Assembly: GCA_019566835.1 (NCBI GenBank)
Contig: GCA_019566835.1_3045.2
Length of the DNA stretch: 35,772 nt
Source of the DNA: a phage
Strand: one strand, 5' to 3'
Shown here: one piece after another, positions 4,694-30,556 of the stretch
Position numbering within the stretch: the stretch's first letter is position 1
Layout of the letters: every line of letters begins with the position of its first letter
Program-made: the position numbers and the translations under genes
Notes under the pieces: generated by a model
Databases searched by the model: none
What the model was told of the DNA's origin: nothing
The model's input: only the letters and a program-made list of their open reading frames with translations

Positions 4694-5350
4694 ATGGCAG
4701 CACCTAGAATATCATTTTCGCCCTCTGATATTCTATTTGGTGTTCTAGATCGCTTGTTCAAAGATAACGCTACCGGGAAAGTTCTTGCTTCCCGGGTAGC
4801 TGTCGTAATTCTTTTATTTATGATGGCGATTGTTTGGTATAGGGGAGATAGTTTCTTTGAGTACTATAAGCAATCAAAGTATGAAACATACAGTGAAATT
4901 ATTGAAAAGGAAAGAAATGCACGCTTTGAATCTGTCGCCCTGGAACAACTCCAGATAGTTCATATATCATCTGAGGCAGACTTTAGTGCGGTGTATTCTT
5001 TCCGCCCTAAAAACTTAAACTATTTTGTTGATATTATAGCATACGAAGGAAGATTACCTTCGACAATAACAGAAAAATCACTTGGAGGATATCCTGTTGA
5101 TAAAACTATGGATGAATATACAGTTCATTTAAATGGACGTCATTATTATTCCGATTCAAAATTTGCTTTTTTACCAACTAAAAAGCCTACTCCCGAAATA
5201 AACTACATGTACAGTTGTCCATATTTTAATTTGGATAATATCTATGCTGGAACGATAACCATGTACTGGTATAGAAATGATCATATAAGTAATGACCGCC
5301 TTGAATCAATATGTGCTCAGGCGGCCAGAATATTAGGAAGGGCTAAATAA
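4694..5350 (+). CDS. t: Holin T
   Basis: 218-aa ORF with strong SD AAGGAGGG. Sequence MAAPRISFSPSDILFGVLDRLFKDN... with one transmembrane segment and a large periplasmic domain matches T4 holin as I recall it, same length. Confidence 0.96.
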   Translation: MAAPRISFSPSDILFGVLDRLFKDNATGKVLASRVAVVILLFMMAIVWYRGDSFFEYYKQSKYETYSEIIEKERNARFESVALEQLQIVHISSEADFSAVYSFRPKNLNYFVDIIAYEGRLPSTITEKSLGGYPVDKTMDEYTVHLNGRHYYSDSKFAFLPTKKPTPEINYMYSCPYFNLDNIYAGTITMYWYRNDHISNDRLESICAQAARILGRAK

Positions 5351-5623
5351 TTATTTGTTCGTATACATCTCTAGATATCGATATACACCCTCAAAACCCT
5401 CGTTGAATTCGTCGATGAGGGTTTTCTTATCTTCTTGAGTTAATTCAGAAACAATTTTACGGAATGAATTCTGATTTAATTTTCTACCTTCATGCGTTAC
5501 TCCAATCTCATTCAGAAATGCAATAAAATTAGCACGATTCTCAACAATATCTTCTCTGGAAAATTTAATCAAAATAGACGCAACAGTAATAATTTCACGA
5601 ACTGTATCAATGTTTTTATTCAT
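5351..5623 (-). CDS. asiA: Anti-sigma-70 factor AsiA
   Basis: 90-aa ORF, MNKNIDTVREIITVASILIKFSREDIVENRANFIAFLNEIGVTHEGRKL..., convergent with t; length and sequence match T4 AsiA. Confidence 0.95.
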   Translation of the reverse strand: MNKNIDTVREIITVASILIKFSREDIVENRANFIAFLNEIGVTHEGRKLNQNSFRKIVSELTQEDKKTLIDEFNEGFEGVYRYLEMYTNK

Positions 5624-5635
5624 TAACTATACCAC

Positions 5636-5788
5636 TCAATTAGTTGACTTTGCTATAATATCATCAGACGCTTGATTTGTAAACTGGTCTGTGGTATTTT
5701 CTTCAAAAATTTTTTCTACGAATTCCTTGAACGACTCGCGTTCCTGAGCTACATTATGCTCGATTACCTTTTCAAGATTATGACTCAT
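5636..5788 (-). CDS. Small acidic ORF (50 aa) between arn and asiA
   Basis: ATG overlaps the arn stop (ATGA). Its 3' half contains the asiA early promoter, so coding status is uncertain. Confidence 0.3.
   Translation of the reverse strand: MSHNLEKVIEHNVAQERESFKEFVEKIFEENTTDQFTNQASDDIIAKSTN
5655..5684 (-). promoter_or_regulatory. T4-type early promoter upstream of asiA
   Basis: Minus strand reads GTTTAC, 18-nt spacer, TATTAT, with an AT-rich upstream region. Confidence 0.6.
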
Positions 5789-7443: not shown

Positions 7444-8079
7444 TCACAGTTCAGATGCTACAGTGATTACTGCTTCAATGTTTTCTGCCGAGCGTTTAAT
7501 GTCAAGATACACATTACCGTTTTTAGCGATTTTACAAGACATTCCGATATCAGTAAATTTCTGAATATGATGTTCCATCATTTTGTATCCAAAAATTCGC
7601 ATATTTCCATTATTGTTAATTTCAAAATTGCGAATTCCGTGGGTGCGTTTTTCTAAAATAGCGAGATAGTTACTGCGATAAGTTTCAACCTTTTTAAGAA
7701 CAAATCCATTTTCATCTAAAAGTTTTAACATAAAGTCTTTATCTTCTTCCATATCAGAAGTAATCTCGCGAGCTTTACGAGTTGCTCGTTTTTTCAGCAG
7801 TTCAGGAGCGTTTTCCTGTGCATATAAAGTTGCTGCGTTTGAAATAATATCTTGCGCTTCGCCTGTGATGATTAATCCATCACCTGATTTCTCTACCAGG
7901 CCTTTTTTAATCAATACCCCAATATTACTATTAACTACTGCGTTACCTAAATCTGGATGCACCTCACGAACTTCTGCGGCTGTAATGAAATCTTTCTTAG
8001 CAATAGTAATTAAAATCGCAGCAGTTTTTTCATTCAGAACATCGTTAGAAGCTTTGATGATGTAAGTTACTTTAGACAT
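7444..8079 (-). CDS. motA: Middle transcription activator MotA
   Basis: 211-aa ORF, MSKVTYIIKASNDVLNEKTAAILITIAKKDFITAAEVREV...; length and sequence match T4 MotA. Confidence 0.95.
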   Translation of the reverse strand: MSKVTYIIKASNDVLNEKTAAILITIAKKDFITAAEVREVHPDLGNAVVNSNIGVLIKKGLVEKSGDGLIITGEAQDIISNAATLYAQENAPELLKKRATRKAREITSDMEEDKDFMLKLLDENGFVLKKVETYRSNYLAILEKRTHGIRNFEINNNGNMRIFGYKMMEHHIQKFTDIGMSCKIAKNGNVYLDIKRSAENIEAVITVASEL

Positions 8080-16202: not shown

Positions 16203-16232
16203 ATTATACCACATCCTTGTGGTAAAGTAAAC
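16203..16232 (-). promoter_or_regulatory. T4-type early promoter for the rIIA.1-rIIA-rIIB unit
   Basis: Minus strand reads GTTTAC, 18 nt, GTGG-TATAAT; the -35 element overlaps the gene 39 stop codon. Confidence 0.65.
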
Positions 16233-18049
16233 TACTGGCTCATCCATTCTTTACGAAGGTCAGCATTATCTCCCATGAGCATTTCAAAAAGCTCTTTCCA
16301 GTTCTCAGGAAGTTTAACAACATCATATACTGGATTTTGAATCATTTCACGATATTCAGATTTTTCCAAAGAGCCAAGTCCTTTAATATAACGGATGCTA
16401 TGTTTAGGTAGAGCATCTTTGGCACTCTCATATTCAGCGACTGTATAAAACCATTCTTGTTTTTTACCGACCTGAGCGATGATTACAGGAGTTTTGACAA
16501 AGCGAATTCGTCCTTGCTCAAACAATTCTGGCCAATTACTAAAAAATCCGAGCAGAGAAGGATAAATGCTTCCTAGACCATCATGGTCAGCATCAGTCAT
16601 AATAGCAATATTGCGATAATTCATGTTTTCAGCTTTTTCACCAAGAACTAATCCAGTGATTGCGCAAATATCAAATAGTTCTTTGTTTTTAAGCATATCT
16701 GCATAAGACATACCCCAACTGTTGAGAACTTTACCACGCAATGGATAACCACCATGAAGTTCTTTATCACGAACATCAATAAGATATCCGATAGCAGAAT
16801 CACCCTCAGTCAAGAAAAGAGTAGTATCAGCATCTTTACCGCACAGATTAGCTTTAATATGTTTATGAACCTTTGCCTTAGAAGCCTTTTTAGCTGCTTT
16901 AGTTTCAGCTGCTTTTTCTGCTGCCAATTTACGAGCTAGTGCAGCTTCAATAATTGGCATTAAAATTGCTTCATTATTTAAAATAGCGCGTGAAATCTTT
17001 TTAGCGTCAAGTTGAATATGACTACGGATTTCACCAAATGGAGAAGTCAAACGCTCTTTAGTTTGAGAATCAAATCGCATGTTTTTCATATCACGAACAA
17101 ACATAACGATAGTCAAACATTCTTTAACGCGTGCTTTAGTTACATCAATTTTGAACTTACGTTTGATTTGTGGAATAAGGTCTTCACAAATATCATCCAT
17201 AACACAGTCAATGTGATGGCCACCATTCTTAGTATGAATGTTATTGACGTATGTTAATTGACGAAATCCATCCGGTGAACGACCAACCGCAATAGAACAA
17301 TTTTCTTGTTCTTGAACAATAGCATGTTCATCATACTGTAGTGCATATTTCTTAAAATTGCCCTGAACCTTTTTACCATTAAAGGTAAATTGAATATCAG
17401 GATAAACAACAGCAAGTGTCTGGAGACGATCTAGTGTAATGTCAAGATAAACTTGGGACAGCTCATTAGTTTCAAATGACATAAAATCTGGAATGAAAGT
17501 AACACGAGTTCCTTTCCATTTTCCAGGAATAGTTTCCCAGGATTTATTTTCCATGCCATTTGAACAACGAACTACAATATTATTTTGACCATCGCCAGTT
17601 TCACCGACAAACATCACAGAAAAAATGTTAGTTAAACTAGAACCAACACCATTCATACCACCGGTGACACGTTCTTTATCATCACCAAAGTTACCACCCG
17701 CTTTTGGAATAGTCCAAGCAGCAACTGGACCAGGAATTTCTTCACCGGTAGGTGTTTTAACCATCGCTTGTGGAATACCACGACCGTTATCTTCAACTGT
17801 TACTTGATTGTTTTTAATAGTAACATTAATTTTATTTGCGAATTTAAACTTAGTACGAATACCTTCATCTACTGAGTTATCGATAATTTCATCAATAAGC
17901 TTAACAAGACCAGGTACATACTGAACACTTTCCCATTTACCAAACAGAAAGCGCTCATGCATTTCATTAGCAGAAGAGCCAATGTACATGCCACTACGCT
18001 TTTTGATATGTTCAATATCGCTCAGAATTTTAATTTCATTCTTAATCAT
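16232..18049 (-). CDS. 39: DNA topoisomerase II large subunit (GyrB-like) gp39, uninterrupted
   Basis: 605 aa from the ATG at 18049 (SD GAGGATAAG; the ORF-track start at 18052 is GTG). N-terminal GHKL ATPase motifs (DEIIDNSVDEG, EDNGRGIP) and a C-terminal Toprim-like region sit in one frame. Confidence 0.92.
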   Translation of the reverse strand: MIKNEIKILSDIEHIKKRSGMYIGSSANEMHERFLFGKWESVQYVPGLVKLIDEIIDNSVDEGIRTKFKFANKINVTIKNNQVTVEDNGRGIPQAMVKTPTGEEIPGPVAAWTIPKAGGNFGDDKERVTGGMNGVGSSLTNIFSVMFVGETGDGQNNIVVRCSNGMENKSWETIPGKWKGTRVTFIPDFMSFETNELSQVYLDITLDRLQTLAVVYPDIQFTFNGKKVQGNFKKYALQYDEHAIVQEQENCSIAVGRSPDGFRQLTYVNNIHTKNGGHHIDCVMDDICEDLIPQIKRKFKIDVTKARVKECLTIVMFVRDMKNMRFDSQTKERLTSPFGEIRSHIQLDAKKISRAILNNEAILMPIIEAALARKLAAEKAAETKAAKKASKAKVHKHIKANLCGKDADTTLFLTEGDSAIGYLIDVRDKELHGGYPLRGKVLNSWGMSYADMLKNKELFDICAITGLVLGEKAENMNYRNIAIMTDADHDGLGSIYPSLLGFFSNWPELFEQGRIRFVKTPVIIAQVGKKQEWFYTVAEYESAKDALPKHSIRYIKGLGSLEKSEYREMIQNPVYDVVKLPENWKELFEMLMGDNADLRKEWMSQ

Positions 18050-18076
18050 CACTTATCCTCGTTTGGTTTCGGGAAT

Positions 18077-18101
18077 ATTATACTCCGGTAATCATAAAGC
18101 T
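18077..18101 (-). promoter_or_regulatory. Middle-type promoter upstream of gene 39
   Basis: Minus strand reads TTTAGCTTTA, 12 nt, TATAAT; one mismatch to the MotA box TGCTTtA. Confidence 0.4.
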
Positions 18102-18119
18102 AAAGGCCCGAAGGCCTTT
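18102..18119 (-). terminator. C(UUCG)G tetraloop hairpin terminator
   Basis: AAAGGCC-UUCG-GGCCUUU overlaps the stop of the lipoprotein gene. Confidence 0.45.
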
Positions 18120-18388
18120 TATTTAAAACGAATAGTTGAATCCTTAAAGAACAGCCCAGAACATACTGTTCCTTCTACTTTCTGCCCGGTAGGTCCAATA
18201 GCACGAAATCCAGTATGTTGGAAATCATTTTCAGAGCAACCGAACCAGTTATATCCAGTGATTTCAATATTCGTAAAACCACTTGATGATAAAATTTTAG
18301 TTGCATTATCAGCATCAGTACATCCTACTAAAGATACTGCTAATACTAATGCTGCGATAGAACGATTAATATATTTCATAATTTTCAC
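18119..18388 (-). CDS. Putative lipoprotein (89 aa)
   Basis: N-terminal signal peptide ending in lipobox LVGC (SIAALVLAVSLVGC). Confidence 0.65.
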   Translation of the reverse strand: MKIMKYINRSIAALVLAVSLVGCTDADNATKILSSSGFTNIEITGYNWFGCSENDFQHTGFRAIGPTGQKVEGTVCSGLFFKDSTIRFK

Positions 18389-18756
18389 TTAAATTTAATA
18401 GCTTGAAGAAGACTAATAATTCTCAAGCGACTTCTTTCATCTTTAACTGTAAAGGAAAGAGGGTCGCCAGATTTCATGGTAATAGTGCATTCAAAATCAA
18501 AATCTTCTGTGACTTCTTCGAAGAAGTCAAATTCTTCAGCATAAATTAGAACATTACTCTGAAAACTGTGAAGAATTTTTCCGTTATTTCCAGACGCTGT
18601 ACTAATCATCGTAACATTATGACCTTTCATATCTTCAACGATAAATTCGCTTGTAGATATTACAGCATTAATAGAACCATTCCTATAAATAGCAGACATT
18701 AGATATTTCTTTTCTTCGCCTTCGCGAATACGATATTTCTTACCGATTTTAAACAT
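18385..18756 (-). CDS. Hypothetical protein (123 aa)
   Basis: ORF with SD AAAGGA; ATGA overlap with the downstream gene. Confidence 0.65.
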   Translation of the reverse strand: MFKIGKKYRIREGEEKKYLMSAIYRNGSINAVISTSEFIVEDMKGHNVTMISTASGNNGKILHSFQSNVLIYAEEFDFFEEVTEDFDFECTITMKSGDPLSFTVKDERSRLRIISLLQAIKFK

Positions 18757-19591: not shown

Positions 19592-19861
19592 TTAATTGAA
19601 CAGTGGAGCGATGCGTTTCAGAAGAGTAGCAGCACCTTTAGCGAATTTTACATCATGAAAAACAGTTTCTTCTTCTGTAACAACTCGAACTTTAATATTT
19701 TCACAATCCCAATTTTTACGAACAATCTTCAAAAGCTGCAGTAAATCTTTACATTCAGCAATATCGATAACACATCCACGAGAATCTTCCATTATCGCAC
19801 GATAACCGTAAGCCATACCATAATCATTGAAAGATTGCTCGATGATAATTAAGTTTTCCAT
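19592..19861 (-). CDS. Hypothetical protein (89 aa)
   Basis: Start taken at MENLIIIEQ with SD GGAGAATAAA. Confidence 0.6.
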   Translation of the reverse strand: MENLIIIEQSFNDYGMAYGYRAIMEDSRGCVIDIAECKDLLQLLKIVRKNWDCENIKVRVVTEEETVFHDVKFAKGAATLLKRIAPLFN

Positions 19862-19885
19862 TTTATTCTCCAAGTTGTTTTCTGT

Positions 19886-19928
19886 ATCAGTAGTTGATAT
19901 TGATATAGTACCATAATCAACTACTGAT
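19886..19928 (-). promoter_or_regulatory. Promoter-like element with extended -10 inside a 13-bp inverted repeat
   Basis: Minus strand reads TGG-TACTAT with no GTTTAC at -35; the -10 is bracketed by ATCAGTAGTTGAT and ATCAACTACTGAT. Confidence 0.35.
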
Positions 19929-19968
19929 GTATATAGTTTTATGAAAAAAATTTAAACTTTATGCAAAT

Positions 19969-29264: not shown

Positions 29265-29298
29265 CAAAAACGAAAAAAGGAACCCCGAAGGATTCCTT
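29265..29298 (-). terminator. Rho-independent terminator downstream of soc
   Basis: Minus strand reads AAGGAAUCC-UUCG-GGGUUCCUU (9-bp stem, UUCG loop) followed by UUUUUUCGUUUUU. Confidence 0.7.
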
Positions 29299-30530: not shown

Positions 30531-30556
30531 ATTATACAATAAATATATAAAGCAAT
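30531..30556 (-). promoter_or_regulatory. MotA-dependent middle promoter for gene 56
   Basis: Minus strand reads ATTGCTTTA (perfect MotA box), 11 nt, TATAAT, about 30 nt upstream of the gene 56 start. Confidence 0.55.

Follow-up and report, generated by a model that had tools for sequence, protein, structure and literature searches.

A C(UUCG)G hairpin running into the orthologue of the T4 middle promoter P39 upstream of gene 39 in a Tequatrovirus genome

The stretch of phage DNA analysed here, 35,772 nucleotides long and referred to below as the window, carries on its minus strand, upstream of gene 39, an element which by its sequence is the orthologue of the already known MotA-dependent middle promoter P39 of phage T4. 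This promoter, identical in sequence to its T4 counterpart, is fused to the C(UUCG)G hairpin at the end of the preceding gene 39.1. Probably, transcription of gene 39 is started here by MotA and AsiA, and transcripts that enter from upstream are partly attenuated. As a promoter this is textbook T4 knowledge, and in GenBank the hairpin/promoter overlap has been annotated before, on a sequence identical to this one: the fPS-90 record (LR215723.1), identical over the 96 nt queried, lists a "terminator" and a "predicted middle promoter" which overlap by 8 nt at these bases. As a by-product, the gene 39 promoter with its abutting hairpin is found conserved across many MotA-encoding genera, with covarying stems and with the MotA box doubling as U-rich tail. 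This conservation could be put to use in T4-like genomes, to improve how middle promoters and terminators are annotated automatically.

Layout of the site and identity with T4 P39

The window belongs to the genus Tequatrovirus (among 531 matching phage records the best reaches 99.3%), and its genes include gp37, gp38, t, asiA, motA, 52, rIIB, rIIA and a fused form of 39 and 60. Read along the minus strand, the site begins with the end of a 39.1-like open reading frame of 89 amino acids (18119–18388 in the ORF list), the stop codon of which, TAA, occupies positions 18121–18119. The hairpin AAAGGCC-UUCG-GGCCUUU (18102–18119) shares the last base of this stop codon. It was identified from the sequence, by an inverted-repeat check and by folding: the arms AAAGGCC (18119–18113) and GGCCTTT (18108–18102) pair perfectly over 7 bp, 4 of them G-C, and enclose the loop TTCG (18112–18109). 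The predicted fold has an energy of -10.7 kcal/mol and is the dominant structure of the ensemble. The hairpin is too short for its folding energy to reach significance (z = -1.75), and equal folding was obtained in 13 of 200 shuffled sequences. An Rfam search of positions 17800–18500 with E <= 1 gave no match.

The hairpin runs directly into the MotA box TTTAGCTTTA (18095–18104, minus strand), which matches the consensus (a/t)(a/t)(a/t)TGCTTtA at 9 of 10 positions; the one deviation is an A instead of the first T of TGCTT, and MotA is reported to be tolerant of single changes (Hinton, 2010). The first three T's of TTTAGCTTTA belong to the 3' arm of the hairpin, and the same 10-mer forms the terminator-like U-rich tail. 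A spacer of 12 nt, TGATTACCGGAG (18083–18094), separates the MotA box from the sigma-70 -10 element TATAAT (18077–18082), which thus stands exactly 12 bp past the box. The putative transcription start is the G at 18070, 7 nt past the -10 element. The Shine-Dalgarno sequence GAGGA (18056–18060) and gene 39 (16232–18049, minus strand) follow, so that a stem-loop stands immediately before a promoter, and the promoter before the ribosome binding site and start codon. Gene 39 encodes the large subunit of DNA topoisomerase II in the fused 39+60 form, as assigned from the ORF list, Pfam and the T4 annotation. The start codon ATG at 18049 agrees with the T4 annotation; the ORF list begins at GTG 18052. 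An earlier note on this DNA had described a minus-strand C(UUCG)G hairpin at 18102–18119 which overlaps the upstream stop codon and runs into a promoter, and the sequence bears this out. The same note had placed the beginning of the MotA-type box at 18101. The layout it proposed stands, and the box itself begins further upstream, at 18104 inside the hairpin.

Comparison with T4 provides the assignment of the promoter. The 95 nt before the ATG of gene 39 are identical to T4, from the stop codon of 39.1 to the start codon of gene 39; MotA box, spacer of 12 nt, TATAAT and inferred start are all shared. Table 1 of Hinton (2010) lists the T4 middle promoter P39 with the start site 5349, the source being Guild et al. 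(1988). In T4 coordinates TATAAT lies at 5361–5356, and 5349 is a G seven bases downstream, which corresponds to G18070 of the window. Because of this sequence identity, the element can be assigned to P39 and its start placed at 18070 by transfer of coordinates. This also agrees with two earlier proposals, namely that gene 39 is preceded by a middle-type promoter under MotA control and that a 5' end is to be expected near 18070. The two proteins required in trans are encoded in the window on the minus strand: motA (7444–8079; Pfam MotA_activ 5e-61, MotCF 9e-67), the activator reading the MotA box, and asiA (5351–5623; Pfam AsiA 1e-42), co-activator and anti-sigma factor. A sigma-70 promoter scan gave no match at the site, and a sigma-70 -35 hexamer is lacking: the hexamer standing 17 bp upstream of the -10 element is CTTTAG, with 1 of 6 positions matching TTGACA.

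Based on this dataset, an RNA polymerase with AsiA-remodelled sigma-70 would be engaged at the site through two contacts, MotA on TTTAGCTTTA at about -30 and sigma region 2 on TATAAT. The gene 39 mRNA would start at G18070 and carry a leader of 21 nt with the Shine-Dalgarno sequence GAGGA, as has been shown in the T4 literature and is transferred here by identity. The hairpin lies upstream of +1 and hence can act only on transcripts that come from upstream; it would be present only in RNA from early promoters further upstream. In comparison with T4 P39 the present site belongs to a different Tequatrovirus with an uninterrupted 39+60 gene and a full-length 39.1, and promoter activity is transferred by sequence. 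The GenBank records of T4 that were examined show no promoter or terminator features at the upstream site of gene 39, and the supplement of a T4 NAD-cap preprint has no entry at 5348–5350.

The window has two occurrences of the strict promoter motif GCTTTA-N11-13-TATAAT, with 0.08 expected, which excludes chance for the motif. A looser pattern, GCTTNA-N11-13-TANNNT, is found 16 times against 8.2 expected, and its matches include the orthologues of T4 PrIIA, PrIIB2 and Pdex.2. The second strict match, at 30531–30553 on the minus strand, consists of ATTGCTTTA, 11 nt and TATAAT and stands some 40 nt before the ORF that begins with MAHFN, a homologue of gene 56. By its sequence and position, this is probably a middle promoter of the P56/oriA type.

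Conservation of promoter and hairpin across genera

Gene 39 upstream regions were gathered from GenBank phages and from IMG/VR contigs. The architecture described above is shared by three IMG/VR contigs and by members of at least seven genera: Tequatrovirus, Dhakavirus, Mosigvirus, Winklervirus, Kanagawavirus, Roskildevirus and Hadassahvirus, the last comprising Acinetobacter phages. The common order is a stop codon, a G-C hairpin, 4–6 U-rich bases, GCTTT(A/T), 12 nt, TAnnAT, 22–29 nt and ATG. The alignment of the seven genera shows no variation in GCTTT and TA..AT, nor in the spacing of 12 nt between them, and among all orthologues the spacer has this length in every case except one. The hairpins stand 1–5 nt in front of GCTTT. 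The earlier note had suggested that the U-run of the hairpin doubles as the A/T part of the MotA box; these are indeed the same nucleotides, and the overlap between the U-run and the 5' A/T part of the box recurs in the other genera. MotA homologues were found in 1144 phage records, of which 69 are from Acinetobacter.

The hairpins themselves vary. Their stems include GGCC/GGCC, GGGC/GCCC, GGAGC/GCUCC, AGGAGCC/GGCUCCU and AGAGCC/GGCUCU, and their loops UUCG, UACG, UAAC, UUAG, CUAGU, CAUG and GCAA. Stems and loops were listed per sequence by script and from single-sequence folds; a MAFFT/RNAalifold treatment of the hairpins misaligned the longer stems, and its pair counts were left unused. Since both stems and loops differ between genera, the hairpin is, judging from these sequences, selected as a structure and not as a sequence.

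A hairpin is lacking in Karamvirus PG7, Jiaodavirus and Gaprivervirus VR26, where a gene abuts or is inserted before gene 39; MotA box and -10 element are kept there all the same. These orthologues show that the promoter does not need the hairpin, and the idea that the hairpin is a part of promoter recognition was rejected on the same grounds. In a Krischvirus that lacks MotA, a consensus TTGACA-17-TATGAT takes the place of the MotA-type promoter. Together the genera provide a natural series by which the attenuation of early read-through could be gauged: a strong U-tract in Mosigvirus, a weak U-tract in the T4 type, and no hairpin in Karamvirus.

The gene upstream of the hairpin varies by genus (39.1, unrelated ORFs or an endolysin); the hairpin/promoter cassette and gene 39 are constant. 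In the Jiaodavirus Klebsiella phage KP185 (660–740 and 1085–1140), the gene for the 39.1-like lipoprotein has retained a C(UUCG)G hairpin, AUGACC-UUCG-GGUCAU. After this hairpin (hairpin-TTTAG), an early-type promoter, TTAGTTGTTTACA-17-TATTAT, drives an inserted ORF of 122 amino acids, and a separate MotA-type promoter, TTGCTATAA-12-TATAAT, precedes gene 39. The variable upstream genes and the Jiaodavirus insertion fit the idea that such cassettes take part in gene shuffling, and are no proof of it.

Function of the hairpin

A simple terminator scan made no call at the window site, where fewer than 5 of the 8 bases after the maximal stem are T; the label "terminator" is therefore not taken at face value here. 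Behind the G-C core, the T4 type has the tail UUUAGCUUUA, which scores lowest among the orthologues in a d'Aubenton-Carafa-type score (computed with modern energy parameters and serving for the ranking of tails only, with no threshold applied). This tail has three consecutive U's, which are followed by an A-G-C interruption and can pair with the upstream AAA. The U-tract is broken by the A at 18101 on the minus strand; a T at this position would give TTTTGCTTTA. The A in place of T before GCTT thus accounts both for the weak tail UUUAGCUUUA and for the match of the MotA box at only 9 of 10 positions. Most genera have the tail UUUUUGCUUUA or similar, including TTTGCTTTAG; in such orthologues the same scan calls terminator-like sites, and the reported terminator tail is the MotA box itself. 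The likeness to canonical intrinsic terminators of E. coli, namely a G-C-rich hairpin right after a stop codon with a T-rich stretch behind it, is thus incomplete in the T4 type, which unlike them has only UUU before the A-G-C interruption, with U's pairable to the upstream A's.

On this sequence evidence, the best reading is that the hairpin would serve as a partial terminator or attenuator and as a stabiliser of the 3' end of the early goF-39.2-39.1 message, and not as a tight insulator. Attenuation by the hairpin appears plausible; most likely it would occur with the MotA box itself as the U-rich tail. Probably the hairpin has a further role in stabilising the upstream message at its 3' end, and probably read-through still contributes to the expression of gene 39. 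According to the review literature, T4 middle genes are transcribed by two routes, extension of early transcripts and middle promoters. In a T4 RNA time-course, 39, 39.1, 39.2 and goF all fall into the same "early" class, in which gene 39 is not separated from the genes upstream of it and which shows no hint of tight insulation. This shared class also counts against the attenuator reading, as do the weak tail, the mismatch in the MotA box and the orthologues that lack a hairpin. A literature search for T4 3'-end or cappable-seq maps found none, and it yielded no 3' end or termination efficiency for the site.

As an alternative, the hairpin may act without any useful termination: it would protect the 39.1 message from 3' exonucleases, early transcription would read through into gene 39, and P39 would add to it. 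We regard this as possible, if somewhat doubtful. The weak U-tract speaks for it, as do the reports that T4 middle genes are made by both read-through and middle promoters and the placement of all genes of the cluster in one RNA class. Also in its favour, C(UUCG)G hairpins are exceptionally stable and are over-represented in the window, where CTTCGG occurs 21 times against 6.95 expected, that is, about three-fold. However, in most other genera 4–6 U's follow the hairpin and satisfy the terminator scan, and the U-run is always placed after the hairpin, which a pure stabiliser would not need.

In a further alternative, hairpin and promoter would be kept mainly as a recombination cassette of the PmSL kind, which shuffles variable genes upstream of the core gene 39, with regulation being secondary. 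A model for such PeSL/PmSL cassettes has been published, and the site has several features which may suggest it: a cassette and gene 39 that stay unchanged next to an upstream gene that differs between genera; the Jiaodavirus ORF with its early-type promoter, inserted right after hairpin-TTTAG and followed by a second MotA-type promoter before gene 39; and a segment of about 27 nt that is nearly identical in T4 P39 and P47. On the other hand, the unit is short, and the stems differ between genera, which limits homology. Ordinary selection on regulation at the boundary between core and variable genes explains the pattern equally, and the cassette explanation appears unlikely.

The earlier note had proposed that the hairpin insulates gene 39 from upstream early transcription. 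In the full form of this proposal the hairpin would be an efficient terminator, and gene 39 would be expressed essentially only from the MotA-dependent promoter. A hairpin with a U-rich tail directly after a stop codon may indeed suggest as much, and a terminator is annotated at the corresponding place in several records: besides fPS-90, in fPS-2, in Mosigvirus KAW3E185 (before gene 39, predicted by ARNold with -10.6 kcal/mol) and in Acinetobacter phage Melin (before gene 39). Moreover, a PeSL stem-loop of the phages RB49/phi1 cut reporter expression as strongly as rrnB T1. The claim is nevertheless overstated and, in this form, not supported by the remaining data, namely the weak tail of the T4 type and the lack of a call by the terminator scan, the assignment of gene 39 RNA, like that of the genes before it, to the early class, the existence of orthologues without a hairpin, and the emphasis of the review literature on dual routes of expression. 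Tight insulation thus appears quite improbable. A chance palindrome next to a promoter-like string, without function, can practically be dismissed: although the hairpin taken by itself is short and is equalled in folding by 13 of 200 shuffles, the promoter is identical to an experimentally listed T4 promoter with a published start site, its motif is far above expectation, and at least 7 genera keep the architecture with stems that vary, by which chance juxtaposition is refuted.

Beyond the preferred reading of a partial attenuator, it is conceivable, though we hold it to be rather unlikely, that the overlap of MotA box and terminator is functional in itself and not a matter of compaction: WWWTGCTTTA, behind a G-C hairpin, would serve as U-tract, and early RNA polymerases would be released on the very site of the activator. 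If this were true, the middle promoter would be kept free of interference from strong early promoters, and gene 39 would be handed from early to MotA control. It would then be a general design rule of phages that encode MotA, the layout being conserved from Tequatrovirus to the Acinetobacter phages of Hadassahvirus. Such a rule was not found spelled out in the literature examined.

Related units and neighbouring elements

In order to place the layout among known promoters, the 58 T4 middle promoters of the table in Hinton (2010) were examined. A strong C(UUCG)G hairpin with its 3' arm ending at -31 to -33 is present at 3 of the 58, namely P39, P47 and PmobB, and at P43 a GGGGC(UUCG)GCCCC hairpin includes the GCTT of the Mot box (T4 segments 36626–36576 for P47, 38734–38682 for PmobB and 29969–29933 for P43). 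In the window, the hairpin/MotA-box unit is present in one copy. Hairpins near a MotA box, within a zone of 25 nt, were observed 3 times against 1.08 expected (P = 0.09, with strong hairpin ends at a background density of 0.75 per kb); a P of about 3e-4 is reached only with a register of 3 nt chosen post hoc. Since the enrichment is mild and the sharper figure is post hoc, the layout of a hairpin running into a MotA box is a recurrent minority design (3–4 of 58) and not a rule.

Two known systems resemble the site. Tuerk and co-workers reportedly described C(UUCG)G hairpins in intercistronic regions of T4 mRNA in 1988. The present hairpin shares with these the tetraloop on a short G-C stem between cistrons of early mRNA; the class is defined by stability and has no single function, and here the hairpin is in addition joined to a MotA box. 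It was in T4 mRNA that C(UUCG)G hairpins first drew attention, and their stability is exceptional (Hall, 2015, PMC4371310). The second system comprises the PeSLs, composite stem-loop/promoter cassettes of T4-type phages, whose stem-loops terminate transcription and have been proposed as upstream attenuators, and the PmSLs of the vibriophage nt-1, which carry a TGCTT Mot box and a -10 element (Arbiol, 2010, PMC2839356; Comeau, 2014, PMC4122927). Common to these cassettes and the site are the stem-loop just before a promoter, the Shine-Dalgarno sequence and start codon behind it, and the location at the edge of a variable region. PeSLs use early promoters and PmSLs come from vibriophage nt-1, whereas the gene 39 unit is of the MotA type in a T4-type Tequatrovirus; it was not found among the cassettes of the same two papers. 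By analogy, the gene 39 unit is to be seen as one instance of composite cassettes of the PeSL/PmSL type.

Another hairpin of this kind, AAGGAAUCC(UUCG)GGGUUCCUU, stands at 29277–29298 on the minus strand and is followed by UUUUCGUUUUUGCA and by GTTTACA-17-TATAAT; as a hairpin with an early-type promoter, it is, by its sequence, a PeSL-like unit.

Within the promoter spacer ccGGAGUAUAAUA, a GGAG is present at 18083–18086 (minus strand), which would be found only in read-through RNA and is absent from mRNA initiated at P39. It is partly like the RegB consensus GGAGRAYARAA, and one may speculate that RegB could cut the read-through RNA selectively. The spacer of T4 P47 likewise carries GGAG. On the plus strand (18102–18130), the hairpin palindrome leads into UUUUAUUUAAAA, which makes a better U-tract than the minus strand has, and scans of the orthologues reported terminator-like sites for both strands. 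From its sequence, the palindrome could also stop antisense transcription along the plus strand.

The 39.1-like protein has a lipoprotein-like signal, MKYINRSIAALVLAVSLVGC, ending in LVGC, and its homologues in related phages are annotated as gp39.1 or "lipoprotein", the latter also in Klebsiella phage KP185. In T4, the N-terminal part of 39.1 (5398–5660) is broken by stop codons and 65 amino acids are annotated; the ORF of the window is of full length, with 89 amino acids. Gene 39 (16232–18049) is uninterrupted in the window, with 605/606 amino acids, and is without the T4 mobA/60.1 insertion and the gene 60 bypass region. Between 39.2 and 39.1 lies an ORF of 123 amino acids (18385–18756, minus strand), which has no Pfam match and no T4 counterpart at this place. 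In related phages it is annotated as RB32ORF005c/ar1_005, and it represents an indel, located in the variable DNA immediately before the hairpin/promoter unit. Finally, an intergenic inverted repeat, CAGTAGTTGAT...ATCAACTACTG, is present at 19900–19945 on the minus strand, upstream of an ORF at 19592–19873 and near a T/A-rich, promoter-like stretch.
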